A stretch of DNA of 64,000 nt, from sequence record NC_028881.1. One strand, given 5' to 3'. The position numbers and the translations under genes are program-made. The notes beneath the pieces are model-generated. The model was not told the origin of the DNA and searched no databases. It saw only the letters and a program-made list of their open reading frames with translations. Origin of the DNA: Escherichia phage vb_EcoM-VR5. Positions within the stretch are counted from its first letter, which is position 1, and every line of letters starts with the position of its first letter. Shown here one piece after another: positions 1,940-55,150 of the stretch.

Positions 1940-3514
1940 ATGGCAAACTTTAATACAATATTAAGTTTTCTTAAGCCATGGGCTAATGAAGACGAAAAAG
2001 AATATAAACAACAATTAAATAACAATTTAGAGTCTGTCACTGCACCTAAGCTTGATGATGGCGCTCGCGAAATTGAAACCCAAGAGCAAAATATCCCTTA
2101 TAACGCTCTTATGCAACAAATGTTTGGTAGTAATGAGCCTGAAGTAAAAAACACCAGGGAACTCATTGATACCTACCGTAATTTGATGAATAACTATGAA
2201 GTCGATAATGCAGTTCAAGAAATTGTGTCCGATGCTATTGTCTACGAGGATGATAAAGAAGTAGTTGCATTAAATTTAGACGGGACAGATTTCAGTCAAG
2301 GGATTAAAGATAAAATTCTAGACGAATTCAGTGAAGTTTTGAATCTTTTAAATTTCCAACGTAAAGGCACCGACCATTTCCAGCGTTGGTATGTAGACTC
2401 GAGAATATTCTTTCATAAAATTATAAACCCTAAAAAAATGAAAGATGGTGTACAAGAGCTCCGTCGTTTAGACCCTCGCCAACTCCAATATATCCGTGAA
2501 ATTGTTACACGTATGGAAGACGGTGTTAAAATTGTAGACGGATATCGCGAGTTTTTCGTTTACGATACAGGTCATGAAAGTTATTGTGCTGATGGACGCG
2601 TTTATTCAGCTGGGACTAAAGTTAAAATTCCTCGTGCCGCTGTGGTTTATGCACATTCCGGATTATTAGATTGTTGTGGTAAAAACATCATAGGTTATTT
2701 GCAACGGGCTATCAAACCTGCAAACCAGCTTAAATTGATGGAAGACGCAATGGTCATCTATCGTATTACCCGTGCTCCAGACCGTCGTGTATTTTATATC
2801 GATACAGGAAATATGCCTTCTCGTAAGGCCGCAGCACAAATGCAACATATCATGAACACGATGAAAAACCGTGTAGTATATGATGCTTCGACAGGTAAAA
2901 TTAAAAACCAACAACACAATATGTCAATGACTGAAGACTATTGGTTGCAACGTCGAGACGGTAAAGCAGTTACAGAAGTTGATACCATGCCAGGTGCCAC
3001 AGGTATGAGTGATATGGATGACGTTCTTTATTTCCGCACAGCACTTTATCGTGCGCTGCGTATCCCAGAGTCACGTATCCCTAGTGAATCTAATTCCGGC
3101 GTTATGTTTGATGCTGGCACGGCTATAACTCGTGATGAGTTGAAATTTGCTAAATGGATTCGTCAGCTCCAAAATAAATTCGAAGAAATTTTCTTAGACC
3201 CATTAAAAACAAACCTCATTCTTAAAAAGATTATTACAGAAGATGAGTGGGAAAGAGAAATAAATAATATTAAAGTTACGTTCAATCGTGATAGCTATTT
3301 CAGTGAAATGAAAGATGCTGAAATCATGGAACGCAGAATCAATATGCTAACGATGGCTGAACCATTTATTGGTAAGTATATTTCACATCAAACGGCTATG
3401 AAAGATTTCCTTCAGATGACTGACGAAGAAATTAATCAAGAAGCTAAGCAAATTGAAGAAGAGTCTAAAGAGGCTCGTTTCCAAAACCCAGATGAAGAAG
3501 AAGAGGATTTCTAA
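1940..3514 (+). CDS. 20: Portal vertex protein gp20
   Basis: 524 aa, the size and position of T4 gp20; late promoter upstream. Confidence 0.9.
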
Positions 3515-3780
3515 TGGAAGATTTAATCGAAGCTATTAAATCAAACGACCTCGTAGCAGTTCGTAAAGCAGCAGCCCCGCTTATCGAATCTCGAGTAGCC
3601 GCTTTGATTGAAGCCCGTAAAGCAGAAATTGCTCGCTCCGTTATGATTGAAGGCGAAGAAGCCGAAGATGACGAAGACGAAGATAAAGACGAAAAATCCG
3701 ATAAAGCAGATAAGAAAGACAAAAAAGAATCTGATGATGCGGATGAAGGTGATGATGGCGATGACGAGGACGACGAATAA
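3514..3780 (+). CDS. 67: Prohead core protein gp67-like (acidic C-terminus)
   Basis: 88 aa with a strongly acidic D/E/K-rich tail; lies between the portal and gp68/gp21 genes as in T4. Confidence 0.7.
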
Positions 3781-5710: not shown

Positions 5711-7270
5711 ATGAAAAAGAATGCATTAGTACAAAAATGGTCCGCTCTGCTGGAAAACGAAGCTCTTCCTGAAATCGTTGGTGCTTCTAAACAAGCTATC
5801 ATCGCTAAAATCTTTGAAAACCAGGAACAAGATATTCTGACCGCTCCTGAATATCGTGACGAAAAAATCTCCGAAGCATTTGGTTCTTTCCTGACTGAAG
5901 CTGAAATCGGTGGTGACCACGGTTATGATGCTACCAATATCGCAGCTGGCCAGACCTCTGGTGCAGTAACTCAGATTGGGCCGGCAGTTATGGGTATGGT
6001 TCGTCGTGCTATTCCTCATCTGATTGCTTTTGATATTTGTGGTGTCCAGCCTCTGAATAACCCTACCGGCCAGGTATTTGCCCTGCGTGCAGTTTACGGT
6101 AAAGACCCTGTAGCTGCTGGTGCTAAAGAAGCTTTCCACCCGATGTATGCTCCGAACGCTATGTTCTCTGGTCAGGGCGCTGCTGAAGCTTTCGAAGCTC
6201 TGGCTGCAAGCAAAGTTCTTACCGTTGGTAAAATTTATTCTCACTTCTTCGAAGCAACCGGTTCTGCACACTTCCAGGCTGTTGAAGCTGTAACCGTTGA
6301 TGCCGCCGCTACTGATGCCGCTAAACTTGACGCTGAAGTTACCAAACTGCTCGAAGCTGGTAAGCTGGCAGAAATCGCTGAAGGTATGGCTACTTCTATC
6401 GCCGAACTTCAGGAAGGCTTTAACGGTTCCCAGGATAACCCGTGGAACGAAATGGGCTTCCGCATCGATAAACAAGTTATCGAAGCTAAATCCCGTCAGC
6501 TGAAAGCAAGCTACTCCATCGAACTGGCACAGGACCTTCGTGCAGTACACGGTATGGATGCAGATGCTGAACTGAGTGGTATTCTTGCTACTGAAATTAT
6601 GTTGGAAATCAACCGTGAAGTTATCGATTGGATTAACTATTCTGCACAGGTTGGTAAATCTGGTATGACCAACACCGTTGGCGCTAAAGCTGGTGTGTTT
6701 GACTTCCAGGACCCGATTGATATCCGTGGTGCTCGTTGGGCCGGTGAAAGCTTTAAAGCTCTCCTGTTCCAGATTGATAAAGAAGCCGCCGAAATCGCTC
6801 GTCAGACCGGTCGTGGTGCTGGTAACTTCATCATCGCTTCCCGTAACGTAGTTAACGTACTGGCTGCAGTTGATACTTCTGTAAGTTATGCCGCTCAGGG
6901 TCTTGGTCAAGGTTTCAACGTTGACACCACTAAAGCAGTATTTGCCGGTGTTCTTGGTGGTAAATATCGCGTTTACATCGACCAGTATGCTCGTGCTGAT
7001 TACTTCACCATCGGTTATAAAGGTTCTAACGAAATGGACGCAGGTATCTACTATGCTCCTTACGTTGCACTGACCCCACTGCGTGGTTCCGATCCGAAGA
7101 ACTTCCAGCCGGTAATGGGCTTCAAAACTCGTTACGGTATCGGTATTAACCCGTTCGCTGACCCAGCTGCTCAGGCACCTACCAAACGTATTCAGAATGG
7201 TATGCCGGACATCGTTAACAGCCTCGGTCTGAATGGTTACTTCCGTCGTGTTTACGTTAAAGGTATCTAA
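5711..7270 (+). CDS. 23: Major capsid protein gp23
   Basis: 519 aa; matches T4 gp23 in size, position and sequence character; followed by a strong hairpin. Confidence 0.95.
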   Translation: MKKNALVQKWSALLENEALPEIVGASKQAIIAKIFENQEQDILTAPEYRDEKISEAFGSFLTEAEIGGDHGYDATNIAAGQTSGAVTQIGPAVMGMVRRAIPHLIAFDICGVQPLNNPTGQVFALRAVYGKDPVAAGAKEAFHPMYAPNAMFSGQGAAEAFEALAASKVLTVGKIYSHFFEATGSAHFQAVEAVTVDAAATDAAKLDAEVTKLLEAGKLAEIAEGMATSIAELQEGFNGSQDNPWNEMGFRIDKQVIEAKSRQLKASYSIELAQDLRAVHGMDADAELSGILATEIMLEINREVIDWINYSAQVGKSGMTNTVGAKAGVFDFQDPIDIRGARWAGESFKALLFQIDKEAAEIARQTGRGAGNFIIASRNVVNVLAAVDTSVSYAAQGLGQGFNVDTTKAVFAGVLGGKYRVYIDQYARADYFTIGYKGSNEMDAGIYYAPYVALTPLRGSDPKNFQPVMGFKTRYGIGINPFADPAAQAPTKRIQNGMPDIVNSLGLNGYFRRVYVKGI

Positions 7271-7286
7271 GACATAACCTTATTAT

Positions 7287-7315
7287 GGGAGACTTCGGTC
7301 TCCCATTCTTGTTTC
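7287..7315. terminator. Hairpin GGGAGAC-TTCG-GTCTCCC after gene 23
   Basis: 7-bp GC stem with UUCG loop followed by a T-rich run; sits between convergent gp23 and the antisense gene. Confidence 0.6.
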
Positions 7316-7319
7316 TGTA

Positions 7320-7586
7320 CTATACAATCTTGACTCGACGGTTGATAATATCGCGGAAGTCAATACGATTTTCTTGGATTTTCAACCAGTTACCAGATTT
7401 GTCTTTGGTGTGGGTAGAATATTCACCATTCCACCAGAAGTCAGTAGCATAAGTCATGGTTTCGTATTTCTTAACTAACGCATTAACTGCATTACCGTTA
7501 GGATTGCGGCCAAATTTTTCTACCAAGGCTTTGATGTCTTTATCAAGAGCTGAAAGTGTAGTACGAATAAAGTTTAACTTGTTCAT
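7320..7586 (-). CDS. Hypothetical small protein, antisense to the late capsid cluster
   Basis: About 88 aa taken from the internal ATG at 7584-7586; preceded on the minus strand by GAGGAG and an early-type promoter (GTTTAC/TACTAT). Confidence 0.5.
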   Translation of the reverse strand: MNKLNFIRTTLSALDKDIKALVEKFGRNPNGNAVNALVKKYETMTYATDFWWNGEYSTHTKDKSGNWLKIQENRIDFRDIINRRVKIV

Positions 7587-7615
7587 TTTTAATCTCCTCA
7601 TGTTTTGATAGGTTT

Positions 7616-7645
7616 ATAGTAACACGTGAGAACCTTGCTGTAAAC
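7616..7645 (-). promoter_or_regulatory. Early sigma70-like promoter for the antisense gene 7320..7586
   Basis: Minus strand GTTTAC, 18 nt, TACTAT, then leader with GAGGAG and ATG. Confidence 0.5.
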
Positions 7646-7651
7646 AACTTT

Positions 7652-7659
7652 TATAAATA
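7652..7659 (+). promoter_or_regulatory. T4-type late promoter (TATAAATA) for gene 24
   Basis: Exact TATAAATA about 29 nt upstream of the gp24 ATG. Confidence 0.6.
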
Positions 7660-7687
7660 AACATATACCCTCAATAAGGAAAGCGCA

Positions 7688-8968
7688 ATGGCAAAGATTA
7701 ACGAATTACTGCGCGAGTCAACAACTACTACCAGCAACTCATTGGGTCGCCCTAATCTTGTTGCTTTGACCCGTGCTACCACTAAACTAATTTATCGCGA
7801 TATCATCGCTGAACAGCGTACAAACCAGCCTATCGCTGCGTTATACGGTGTCAAATACCTTACCCCTGATAATGAATTTAGCTTCCAGACCGGTGCTACT
7901 TACGGTGGTGAAGTTGGTTCTAAAGACCGTGAAACTATCCCAGAATTAACAGATAAGTCCCAGGCTATTGCCAAGGGTGGCTACTTTAAGTATCAGAATG
8001 TGGTTTATAAGGCTTTGGTTGCAAGCCCACTCGCATCTACTAGCGCCATAGATTTGTCTGATGCTCTCCAAGAAGGTTTGGTGTCATTAACTTGCCGTCT
8101 TGTCCCTGATGCAGCTCATACCGAGAAATTCGAAGCTGGAGATGTTGAAATTAGTAATGCCGTGTTCCAGGTCAATAAATGGAACGCACCAGTTAAATCT
8201 CGTAAGCTGAAAACGGCTTTGACTGTAGAACTAGCCCAGGATATGGAATCTAATGGCTTTGATGCTCCAGCATTCCTTGAAGACCTCCTGGCTACAGTAA
8301 TGGCCGATGAAATTAACAAAGATGTTCTGCAGTCATTGATTACCGTATCTAAACGTTATAAAGTTACTGGTGTTTCTGATAACGGTATTATCGACCTTTC
8401 TTATGACTCTGCACCAGAATCTGCTCGTAAGCTGTACGAAATGGTTTGTGAAATGAATTCCGAAATCCAGAAAACAACTTCTTATTCCGCTACATTTGTT
8501 GTAGCTTCTTCACGTGTTGCTGCTATGCTTGCTGGTTCAGGTTGGTTAAAACACAAGCCGGAAGATGAGGCTTGGCTCCCGGAAACCGCGTATGGTTATT
8601 TGATTAATGGCTTACCTGTGTTCTGTGATGTGAATAGTCCATTGGATTATGTTACCGTAGGCGTTAAAGAAAACTATGGTGGTAATGAAGTTGTTGGTTC
8701 TATTTTCTATGCGCCGTATACTGAAGGCCTAGATTTAGATGATGAAGAACACGTCGGTGCTTATAAGGTAATTGTCGACCCAGACAGTTTACAACCTTCT
8801 ATTTCTCTGATGGTTCGTTATGCGTTGTCTGCCAACCCTTATACCGTAGCCAAAGATGATAAAGAAGCCCGTGTTATCGATGCAACTAATATGGACTTGA
8901 TGGCGGGCCAGAGCAATATGTCTTATCTGCTTGGTGTTAAATTGCCTAAAATAATTTATGAGGCGTAA
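7688..8968 (+). CDS. 24: Capsid vertex protein gp24 (T4-orthologous copy)
   Basis: 426 aa; N-terminus MAKINELLRESTTT...GRPNLVALTRATTKLIY matches T4 gp24 from memory; late promoter at 7652-7659. Confidence 0.9.
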   Translation: MAKINELLRESTTTTSNSLGRPNLVALTRATTKLIYRDIIAEQRTNQPIAALYGVKYLTPDNEFSFQTGATYGGEVGSKDRETIPELTDKSQAIAKGGYFKYQNVVYKALVASPLASTSAIDLSDALQEGLVSLTCRLVPDAAHTEKFEAGDVEISNAVFQVNKWNAPVKSRKLKTALTVELAQDMESNGFDAPAFLEDLLATVMADEINKDVLQSLITVSKRYKVTGVSDNGIIDLSYDSAPESARKLYEMVCEMNSEIQKTTSYSATFVVASSRVAAMLAGSGWLKHKPEDEAWLPETAYGYLINGLPVFCDVNSPLDYVTVGVKENYGGNEVVGSIFYAPYTEGLDLDDEEHVGAYKVIVDPDSLQPSISLMVRYALSANPYTVAKDDKEARVIDATNMDLMAGQSNMSYLLGVKLPKIIYEA

Positions 8969-10249
8969 ATGCAAAAGATTAACGCACTAATCCATGAATC
9001 AACTCTGACGGCGGCCAACTCGGTCGCTCGTCCTACTCTTCTCTCATATACTAAAGCTACTAACAAACGTATCTTTAAATCACTTGTAGCCGAACAAAAG
9101 ACACGCCAGCCTGTGGCGGCGCTTTATGGTATTCGTGTTCTGAACCCAGCAGATAAAATGACTTATCTTGGCGGCGCAACGTTTGCTGGTGAAATTGGTA
9201 TGTTTGAACGTTCTCAGATTCCAGAGGTAGTAGGTCCTAATGAAGCTTATGTCGTCGGTGATATGTTCCAATTTGAAAATGTTGTTTTCAAAGTACTAGA
9301 AGCATCTCCTTTCGCCGGTACAGCCGAAACTGAGATGGGTGAAGTTATTTCTGAAGCTATTGCTGCTGGTCATATTCGTATGGTTTCTGATGCGGCTCAG
9401 ACTTCTAAATTTGAAAAAGGTCATCCTGAGATTGCCGAAGCCGGATTCCGTATCGATAAATGGCAGACTGAAGTTAAATCTCGTAAGTTAAAAACTTCAT
9501 TAACTGTAGAACTAGCCCAAGACCTAGAATCCAATGGATTCAATGCCCCAGGATTTATCGAAGATATTCTTGGAATCCAGATGGCAGAGGAAATTAATAA
9601 GGACGTACTTCAGTCATTGATTACTGTAAGTTCCCGTTTTAAAGTCCAAGGTGTTTCTGAAAAAGGTGTTCTTAACCTTACAGACCCACAGTATGATAAT
9701 GCCCAAGACCGAGCTCGTACATTGTATTATTATATGTGTGAAATGAACTCAGCGGTCCAACGTAATACATCATTCGCTGGTACATATGCCGTAGCTAGTT
9801 CCCGTTGTGCCGCTATTCTTGCCGCGTCCGGCTGGGTCGAGAAAAAAGATGACCAAGACGAATTAGCTTATGGTGTTCTGAAGAACGGTCTACCACTTTA
9901 TGCTGATGTGAATAGTCCGTGTGATTATGTTATCGTCGGTGTGAATGCAGATATTGGTGAAGGACAGACGGTCGCATCTTTGTACTATGCGCCTTATGTG
10001 GAAGGCCTGGACAACGTAGATGATGAGGGTGATACTTCTGTAGGTGAATTCAAGGTTATCGTTGACCCTGAAAGCTTACAGCCTACCGTCGCCTTGTTGG
10101 CTCGATATGCACTGACAGCAAACCCGTATACCGTTGCCAAAGATGATAAAGAAGCTCGTATTATTGATGGGTCCGATATGGATAAGATGGCTAACCAAAG
10201 TCAATTGAGTTCTTATCTTGGTGTTAAACTTCCACCACTAGAAAAATAA
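8969..10249 (+). CDS. Capsid vertex protein gp24 paralog (second tandem copy)
   Basis: 426 aa, collinear with the preceding gp24 and sharing long identical motifs (KSRKLKT.LTVELAQD.ESNGF, EINKDVLQSLITVS, YALSANPYTVAKDDKEAR) but diverged elsewhere. Confidence 0.85.
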   Translation: MQKINALIHESTLTAANSVARPTLLSYTKATNKRIFKSLVAEQKTRQPVAALYGIRVLNPADKMTYLGGATFAGEIGMFERSQIPEVVGPNEAYVVGDMFQFENVVFKVLEASPFAGTAETEMGEVISEAIAAGHIRMVSDAAQTSKFEKGHPEIAEAGFRIDKWQTEVKSRKLKTSLTVELAQDLESNGFNAPGFIEDILGIQMAEEINKDVLQSLITVSSRFKVQGVSEKGVLNLTDPQYDNAQDRARTLYYYMCEMNSAVQRNTSFAGTYAVASSRCAAILAASGWVEKKDDQDELAYGVLKNGLPLYADVNSPCDYVIVGVNADIGEGQTVASLYYAPYVEGLDNVDDEGDTSVGEFKVIVDPESLQPTVALLARYALTANPYTVAKDDKEARIIDGSDMDKMANQSQLSSYLGVKLPPLEK

Positions 10250-10275: not shown

Positions 10276-11283
10276 TTATTTGGATACTAATTCAATCCAC
10301 ACAGCTCGTAGCGTATCTTTAACACACTCAATGAGCTGCTTTTTAACTTCAACAGGATTTTCTGCATCGGTTAATTCTAATTCTTCACGGGACGCCTCTT
10401 CCAAAATATCTTGGACTGTTAGTCCCATTACCTTTCCGAAATCCTTAGGCGTTACTTCACCAATCTTACTGATAACATTGTTAATACGGTTAACAGTCAC
10501 ATAATCAGTGAATTGCCACATCAGGTCCATGTCATCTTGGGACAATACTACTACAGCCTTGATAGGCTTATCGGATTTTTTCTTCTCGCTGAATTTAGAG
10601 TTCTTACATTTAATCGCTACTCGATTTCCATTTGGAAGCCAGGTAGGAACATCAGGTTTCAGTACAAAGCCTTCAGCCGTAAATACTTTGCCTTCAACCT
10701 TTGGAATAAAATCAGTCGAGTTTGCGATAGTCAGGCCTGCATTATCCACCGCAAAATTGTAATCAGGAACCACAGAATCAAAATCATTAGGGAGCTTAAT
10801 AAGGTCTTCAAAGCTACCAGTAGCCAGACATGGAGCCACCTTAAACTTGTGGATAATACAGAAAGCTTCCATCAATGTATCAGTCAGAACAGATTCTGTG
10901 CCGTCGTCTTTAGTAACGCGGATATCGAACACATAAAAATCTTTATCACCATAATCCACATTCTTCTGAATACCTGAACCGGCGAACTCGCCATAAATCT
11001 GGTACGACTGATAATCAATCGATTCAATTAGATGCTGAACAGATTTAATAGAATCAGCATAATTCTTTAAAACAATTTCATAACCATAAAAGTCTTCAGC
11101 AGGAAGAATAGGGCCTGTGCGCTTAGCGCATGTGACTGCGTCACGTTCAATAATTAAACTAAAGTTCGTACCATGAATCTTCTCACGTGCTACCCACTCA
11201 CCATCGGTCATACCATGGGTACGGAGTTTTTCAATGAACTTATTGTTGTAGTGGTTTTCCAGACTGCTATATTTCTTGAACAT
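10276..11283 (-). CDS. rnlB: RNA ligase 2 (RnlB)
   Basis: 335 aa; N-terminus [19 protein letters not shown] matches T4 Rnl2 from memory; position after gene 24. Confidence 0.9.
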
Positions 11284-55075: not shown

Positions 55076-55142
55076 ATGAACCTCTGTCCAATTAGTGTAG
55101 GAGTTCATTATATCATGGCCCTAGAAGAAGTAAACACTTTGC

Positions 55143-55150
55143 TATAAATA
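55143..55150 (+). promoter_or_regulatory. T4-type late promoter (TATAAATA) for gene 34
   Basis: Exact TATAAATA about 33 nt upstream of the gp34 ATG. Confidence 0.6.

Follow-up and report, generated by a model that had tools for sequence, protein, structure and literature searches.

The window, the stretch of 64,000 nucleotides analysed here at its full length, belongs by nucleotide match to a JS98-like (Dhakavirus) T4-type coliphage. Over positions 7200–7720 the top match is phage ESCO10, at 97.7% identity, and JS98, Bp7, QL01, and others are approximately 93–94% identical over the same interval. The order of genes matches the JS98 annotation: gene 21, gene 22, gene 23, a small ORF, gene 24a, gene 24b, and rnlB. 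The slot that concerns us is flanked on the left by gene 23 (5711–7270, plus strand), a 519-aa ORF for the major capsid protein that is annotated gp23 in JS98 and its relatives and whose product shares 98% amino acid identity with JS98 gp23. On the right lies gene 24a (7688–8968, plus strand), which is assigned to the head vertex protein from the ORF and the JS98 annotation; the same annotation identifies gene 24b (8969–10249, plus strand) and rnlB (10276–11283, minus strand). Gene 24 is thus present as a pair of tandem paralogues with no gap between them and 54% amino acid identity. The pair is annotated 24a/24b in JS98, two copies are also found in VR26 and in two metagenomic contigs, and the gene is single copy in T4, G28, HX01, and mobillu.

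Between the capsid and vertex genes, on the minus strand, is an ORF of 88 aa (7320–7586; ATG at 7586–7584, stop TAG at 7322–7320) that corresponds to JS98 orf173 and to PHROG 6003. An initial annotation of this DNA had described such an ORF, and we find it in place, conserved, and under selection. The PHROG 6003 profile matches it with E = 1.1e-48, residues 1–87 aligning with profile positions 1–87 of 90, and the product is 94% identical in amino acid sequence to JS98 orf173 (EpJS98_0173) and 100% identical to that of phage ESCO10. Homologues are detected by tblastn in 224 phage records, one copy per genome, which bears out the conservation in related phages on which that first reading had been made to depend; there is no paralogue elsewhere in the 64-kb window. 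Among the close relatives compared, dN/dS is 0.06–0.12 at a dS of 0.37–0.52. We conclude from these comparisons that the ORF is a real, conserved protein-coding gene under strong purifying selection. The closest known counterpart is JS98 orf173 itself, which agrees with the ORF in place, strand, promoter, and hairpin and shows no material difference. It is also a gene already known: more than 200 phage genomes carry it under the label of hypothetical protein, and its presence here is a correct but ordinary finding; our literature search returned no paper on orf173 or PHROG 6003.

A longest-ORF call would extend the protein to 93 aa by starting at an upstream ATG at 7601. Since that codon overlaps the Shine-Dalgarno sequence, would be separated by only some 8 nt from the point at which the transcript is predicted to begin, and is not kept in either HX01 or VR26, we rejected the longer version in favor of 88 aa. 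The annotation of IME08 begins the ORF at the upstream ATG (93 aa; 3305–3586 in the IME08 locus), again overlapping the ribosome-binding site, and that start was probably mis-called.

Promoters and hairpin at the junction of genes 23 and 24

Upstream of the ORF the minus strand reads GTTGTTTACAGCAAGGTTCTCACGTGTTACTATAAAC, in which 17 nt separate GTTTACA from TACTAT and a TG stands one base ahead of the −10 hexamer. The −35 element GTTTACA (7639–7645, minus strand) is identified by its motif family in the window and by comparison across genera; with the extended −10, TGtTACTAT (7616–7624, minus strand; TACTAT at 7621–7616, TG at 7624–7623), it would constitute an early, sigma-70-type promoter. 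The elements can be read either as GTTTAC (7645–7640), 18 nt, and TACTAT (7621–7616), or as TTTACA-17-TACTAT with TGn. The first of these readings is the early-type promoter that the initial annotation had placed at 7616–7645, and it stands as proposed: the interval contains what is expected of a T4-type early promoter (a −35 of GTTTAC(A), a spacer of 17 nt, plus or minus 1, and a −10 of TAnnAT) and fits the phage's own early-promoter family. That family is readily seen. The pattern GTTTAC-N16-18-TAHNAT has 8 matches in the 64-kb window where 0.69 would be expected, and no shuffle reached 8. Because all eight (at 7616, 11640, 26188, 41468, 50223, 50512, 51198, and 55107) lie on the minus strand, and all eight have a TG one base before the −10 hexamer, the promoter of the ORF can be counted a member of it. 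The GAGGAG leader previously pointed out is also present (7599–7594), as a Shine-Dalgarno sequence (7594–7599, minus strand) 7 nt before the ATG that is conserved in JS98, IME08, G28, mobillu, and HX01. A search by eye for a MotA (middle-promoter) box gave TGCTGTA as the nearest candidate; it is on the plus strand, with the wrong spacing to any −10, and was set aside.

On the other strand, a T4-type late promoter box for gene 24a, TATAAATA, occupies 7652–7659 (plus strand), 28 nt upstream of the gene 24a ATG and within the range, roughly 20–40 nt upstream of a late gene start, in which a late promoter is predicted. There are 14 occurrences of TATAAATA in the window against 6.8 expected. The position and strand of this box had been given correctly; the distance of 7 nt quoted with them was a difference between coordinates, and the actual gap between the late box and the early −35 hexamer on the opposite strand is 6 nt. 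We infer that the A/T-rich late box would occupy the position of an UP element with respect to the early promoter, at roughly −43 to −50, and that the footprints of the two polymerases would overlap, so that the early and late sites would be used at different times. A second pair of the same kind is found at the rnh/gene 34 junction, where GTTTACT-N-TGATATAAT on the minus strand (55107–55135) lies 7 nt from a TATAAATA box on the plus strand (55143–55150). The architecture to which the initial annotation drew attention is therefore generic, and the back-to-back layout is not unusual; it looks standard wherever early and late units diverge.

At its other end the ORF is bounded by a stable hairpin, GGGAGAC-UUCG-GUCUCCC (7287–7304, within an element at 7285–7306), which folds on both strands and sits between the convergent stop codons, 15 nt beyond that of the ORF and 17 nt after that of gene 23. 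Its folding is stronger than that of shuffled sequence (z = −3.8 on the plus strand and −3.9 on the minus strand), and across seven phages 94% of cells are paired, with compensatory changes at 2 pairs. The T-run follows the hairpin on the plus strand only, and a terminator scan scores that strand only; on the minus strand the bases that come after the hairpin are AUAAUAAGG, and no intrinsic terminator is scored for transcription that way. As a bidirectional intrinsic terminator, a GC-rich hairpin with a U-run on both strands, the element falls short by the missing U-run on the minus strand. The gene 23 terminator hairpin had been described as shared, and physically it is common to both genes, whereas it is terminator-like for gene 23 only. 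From its sequence it looks like a terminator-like element of gene 23 that also forms the 3′ boundary of the antisense cassette; for the antisense RNA it may stabilize the 3′ end or terminate weakly.

The control region was compared at ten loci: the window, JS98, IME08, G28, VR26, HX01, mobillu, two metagenomic contigs, and T4. The late box TATAAATA is invariant in all ten. A −35 motif was found in nine (GTTTAC, or ATTTAC in T4), the tenth locus, a contig, having a variant, GTGTAC, that the pattern does not score; in the nine scored loci the gap from late box to −35 is 6 nt, or 5 nt in T4. The −10 hexamer is TACTAT, TATTAT, or CATAAT at the same spacing in each of the ten, and TGn precedes it in all except VR26. 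Across Dhaka-, Gapriver-, Mosig-, and Tequatrovirus the spacer between the hexamers diverges while the hexamers and the late box persist. Such a pattern of conserved hexamers around a diverging spacer is, as a matter of comparative sequence analysis, the phylogenetic footprint of a functional promoter.

The T4 member of this comparison deserves separate mention. As the initial annotation stated and the T4 record bears out, T4 has segD at this junction, and the block upstream of segD is homologous to the one described here: TTTACA-17-TGaTATTAT, 5 nt from the gene 24 TATAAATA (T4 NC_000866 107233–107322). The T4 GenBank records annotate no promoter features at the segD locus, and a review of 2010 stated that bioinformatic searches had failed to find a segD-specific promoter (Edgell et al. 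2010, PMC2988022). The comparison thus identifies a conserved sigma-70-type promoter upstream of T4 segD where that review reported none. The supplement to a time-resolved omics study of T4 published in 2022 (PMC9697503) lists segD as an early RNA and a middle protein and gives SegD peptide intensities across the time series. To the extent of that supplement, the early class of segD lends indirect support, by analogy, to the idea of early promoter activity in the conserved block; the segD RNA that it records could in part be read-through from the upstream early unit (rnlB, 24.2, 24.3). The early timing that we ascribe to the 88-aa ORF is likewise an extrapolation from its promoter motif and from these T4 segD data.

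Contents of the slot and exchange of cassettes

The T4-type members of PHROG 6003 that we compared all lie between genes 23 and 24 and run antisense to them, and the contents of the slot take three forms. The ORF stands alone in JS98 and most Dhakaviruses, in the Gaprivervirus VR26 (61% amino acid identity), in the Mosigvirus HX01 (31–35% identity), in some Tequatroviruses, of which G28 is one, and in T4-like contigs from metagenomes. In IME08 and mobillu the ORF shares its strand with a SegD-like GIY-YIG gene that begins 3 nt beyond it, and an endonuclease of the IME08/mobillu type is found at 80% identity or more in approximately 38 records. In T4 the endonuclease gene is alone in the slot, its product being 56% identical to that of IME08.

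Two genomes have sharp mosaic islands at this place. G28, a Tequatrovirus, has gene 23 and gene 24 flanks that are 97–100% T4-like, and between them the DNA from hairpin to promoter block is 93–100% JS98-like. The Mosigvirus mobillu has flanks that are 98–100% HX01-like and a cassette, ORF plus endonuclease gene, that is IME08-like; the right-hand junction of this island lies inside the 5′ leader, with the −10 on one side of it and the Shine-Dalgarno sequence on the other. The islands span 2550–2950 of the compared G28 locus and 2400–3490 of the compared mobillu locus. In VR26 gp23 is 99% identical to that of the window and the ORF only 61% identical, and in one contig gp23 and gp24 are 93% and 95% identical to those of the window while the ORF is a Mosigvirus-type allele, 25% identical. 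Sequence comparison of these four loci shows the slot to be a site of cassette exchange, bounded by the conserved regulatory DNA of hairpin and promoter block, at which cassettes have passed between genera.

The 88-aa protein and its relatives

The product of the ORF has a pI of 9.8. Its family is hydrophilic, with neither a cysteine pattern nor a hydrophobic segment, and is basic, the pI being 9.2–9.9 in every member of 88 to 93 aa but one (8.0); from these properties the protein is predicted to be small, basic, and soluble. Invariant in the family are M1, K3, F6, N30-G31-N32, and Q71, and nearly invariant are L14, L21, N35, and A45. Homology searches and structure prediction, which the initial annotation had proposed for this protein, gave the PHROG 6003 match described above, a confident model, and no relatives of known function. 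The AlphaFold2 model, built on a 19-sequence alignment, has a pLDDT of 94 and a pTM of 0.79. It presents an alpha-alpha-beta-beta-alpha fold, with helices at residues 3–25 and 31–48, strands at 52–61 and 67–71, and a final helix at 77–87, and the independent BFVD model of an rV5-like member that is 39% identical superposes on it with a TM of 0.90. As modelled, the fold is confident and is kept across alleles of 25–40% identity.

Searches for a function by similarity were negative over a wide range. With the 88-aa protein as query, Pfam gave only DUF5380 at E = 0.13, under the cut-off of that family. For five diverse members, NCBIfam and PADLOC returned noise and no significant match, and by these curated models the family does not belong to the known anti-defence or defence-associated proteins. 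Among the sequences of the PDB, a profile search found nothing better than E = 0.1, to de novo helical designs. Every Foldseek match in the PDB had E > 1, and the sole Foldseek match in BFVD was the family's own rV5-like member. The earlier remark that the ORF has no endonuclease motif holds up as well: Pfam detects no GIY-YIG catalytic domain in the protein, and BLASTP against T4 SegD gives E = 0.55 over 8 residues, which is no similarity.

Relatives do occur outside the T4-type phages. Homologues of 34–40% identity are found in rV5-like (Vequintavirinae) genomes and contigs, where they lie in long same-strand runs of small genes, one of them adjoining a T7 gp0.6-like gene; another homologue sits at the boundary of the tail and replication modules of a siphovirus-like contig. 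Among the rV5-like carriers is MH533020, listed as 'Acinetobacter phage ABPH49' and despite that name classified in the Vequintavirinae, among the relatives of rV5-like coliphages; its homologue, 38% identical, is in a cluster of small hypothetical genes. A HMMER search of 1.84 billion representative proteins with a 19-sequence profile gave 9 matches: six short proteins like the ORF product, one chimera, and two long repeat proteins, and the contexts examined were all phage. The two long proteins, P0025 and P0026, were judged from their sequences to be spurious, the matches lying in repeat or low-complexity sequence. The chimera, P0023 (ENA, 160 aa), joins 32 residues of the ORF product (ALVKKYETMAYATDFWWNGEYSTHTKD) to unrelated sequence on a metagenomic contig of 701 bp and is most likely a product of assembly or gene calling.

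Probable function of the cassette and comparison with known systems

We picture the ORF as an independent early-gene cassette lodged in reverse in the gap between two late genes, 23 and 24. Soon after infection, host RNA polymerase with sigma-70 would start at GTTTACA-17-TGtTACTAT and make an mRNA with a leader of about 22 nt and a GAGGAG ribosome-binding site, meeting the hairpin just beyond the stop codon. The product would be the basic, soluble protein of 88 aa, folded compactly as alpha-alpha-beta-beta-alpha. Later in the infection gene 24 would be transcribed by the late machinery of the phage from the TATAAATA box, which lies on the opposite strand at a distance of 6 nt, so that a single block of about 50 bp would serve both the early and the late phase. 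The slot itself has any of the three contents described above: the ORF, the SegD-like endonuclease gene, or both.

As to what the protein does, we think it probable that it belongs among the dispensable accessory factors that are made early and directed at a component of the host, in takeover or in counter-defence, a class that we assign by context. Dispensability is suggested by the absence of the ORF from T4. It is the combination of this with an early-type promoter, a small, basic, soluble product, purifying selection, transfer as a module, and residence in the rV5-like clusters that leads us to the host-directed class, and the location of the homologues in early small-gene clusters of rV5-like phages speaks for an accessory role in particular. 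Against a host-directed role, selection within lineages is purifying rather than diversifying, which is less typical of genes engaged in an arms race. The fixed position in four genera could hint at a local role; the rV5-like contexts argue against that. A function in head assembly or as an endonuclease appears unlikely.

A larger proposal is possible, and we put it forward tentatively. The family may represent a new fold among early host-directed effectors, of counter-defence or takeover, that has spread as a self-contained cassette of promoter, ORF, and hairpin through lytic phages of enterobacteria in three groups unrelated to one another (T4-like, rV5-like, and one siphovirus-like), and the conserved block may at the same time reveal that T4 segD has an unrecognised sigma-70 early promoter of its own, contrary to the 2010 review.

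Other explanations were weighed. It is unlikely, in our estimation, that the protein is a small nucleic-acid-binding regulator of its own divergent promoter block or of other phage or host promoters or RNAs. Its small size, its consistently basic character (pI 9.2–9.9), and the position of its gene beside a bidirectional control region would suit such a regulator, and in the model the conserved polar motif N30-G31-N32..N35, together with Q71, could form a binding surface; the fold, however, is not a DNA-binding fold.

We regard it as quite improbable that the ORF is the passenger of a homing-endonuclease element, persisting and spreading by linkage to a SegD-like gene that shares its promoter and not by any benefit to the phage. 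A passenger would account for the approximately 38 records in which the SegD-like GIY-YIG gene lies 3 nt after the ORF on the same strand, for the entry of the mobillu ORF and endonuclease gene into a Mosigvirus backbone as one block, and for a T4 slot that holds the endonuclease gene only. It would not account for the majority of carriers, roughly 186 of the 224 records by subtraction of two separate counts, in which no endonuclease gene is present, nor for G28, which gained the ORF cassette alone, nor for the homologues in rV5-like and siphovirus-like contigs that have no endonuclease gene adjacent to them. A dN/dS of about 0.1, moreover, shows selection on the protein itself.

A role at the level of RNA is very doubtful. 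Under that explanation early antisense transcription, possibly continuing beyond the hairpin and over the 3′ end of gene 23, would tune or delay the expression of genes 23 and 24, and coding would be secondary. Read-through into antisense gene 23 is plausible for a hairpin that has no U-tract on the minus strand, two promoters only 6 nt apart would have overlapping footprints, and the antisense arrangement is kept whichever cargo, ORF or segD, is in the slot. The evidence from the protein points the other way: selection is strongly purifying at the amino acid level, a confident fold is maintained across alleles of 25–40% identity, and the same protein is encoded in contexts that are not antisense in other phage groups. 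There is in addition no match to an Rfam family in 7150–7750. Genes 23 and 24 of T4-type phages are not transcribed early, and there would therefore be little sense RNA with which an early antisense RNA could pair.

That the protein is an accessory factor of head morphogenesis, sited between genes 23 and 24 in order to work with them, is extremely improbable despite a position fixed in four T4-type genera, for the gene has the opposite orientation and an early-type, not a late, promoter, is absent from T4, whose heads assemble normally, exchanges its alleles independently of those of gp23 and gp24, and occurs in non-structural small-gene clusters of rV5-like phages.

For the host-directed accessory factor that we favor, the consequence is a practical one of modest value: a small, confidently modelled protein with an orphan fold, predicted to be early and common to unrelated groups of coliphage, is a reasonable candidate for screens of host takeover or counter-defence. 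The initial annotation was essentially right in both observation and interpretation, and the antisense early character of the slot was already known from T4 segD. What the present analysis adds is the promoter common to the ORF and T4 segD, the boundaries of cassette exchange, the wider distribution of the family, and the absence of fold relatives. The current view of how T4-type genomes are organized is unchanged. The locus does offer a clean and well-bounded case of a cassette-exchange slot within the head module, the most conserved module of these phages.

Three known arrangements invite comparison. One is the T4 segD locus, where a free-standing GIY-YIG endonuclease gene lies between genes 23 and 24, antisense to them as the ORF is in the window, and has a homologous UUCG hairpin downstream in addition to the homologous block upstream. 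The cargo is unrelated, since the 88-aa ORF has no GIY-YIG motif; the IME08-type phages carry both genes in tandem where T4 carries the endonuclease gene alone. The divergent early/late junctions of T4-type genomes, of which rnh/gene 34 is an example, share the back-to-back layout seen between the ORF and gene 24, the difference at that junction being that the function of the early gene is known and that rnh belongs to a longer early unit. The third comparison is with the promoter-early stem-loop (PeSL) cassettes of phages RB49 and phi1, which are shuffled as modules (Arbiol et al. 2010, PMC2839356). Like them, the cassette described here combines a small ORF of unknown function with a strong sigma-70-type early promoter and a stable stem-loop, lies inside a conserved virion module, and is exchanged in modular fashion between related phages. 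The geometry is different. In a PeSL the ORF is preceded by a single compact unit made up of stem-loop and promoter (Arbiol et al. 2010), whereas in the cassette of the 88-aa ORF the promoter is upstream and the stem-loop downstream, where it doubles as the terminator of gene 23.
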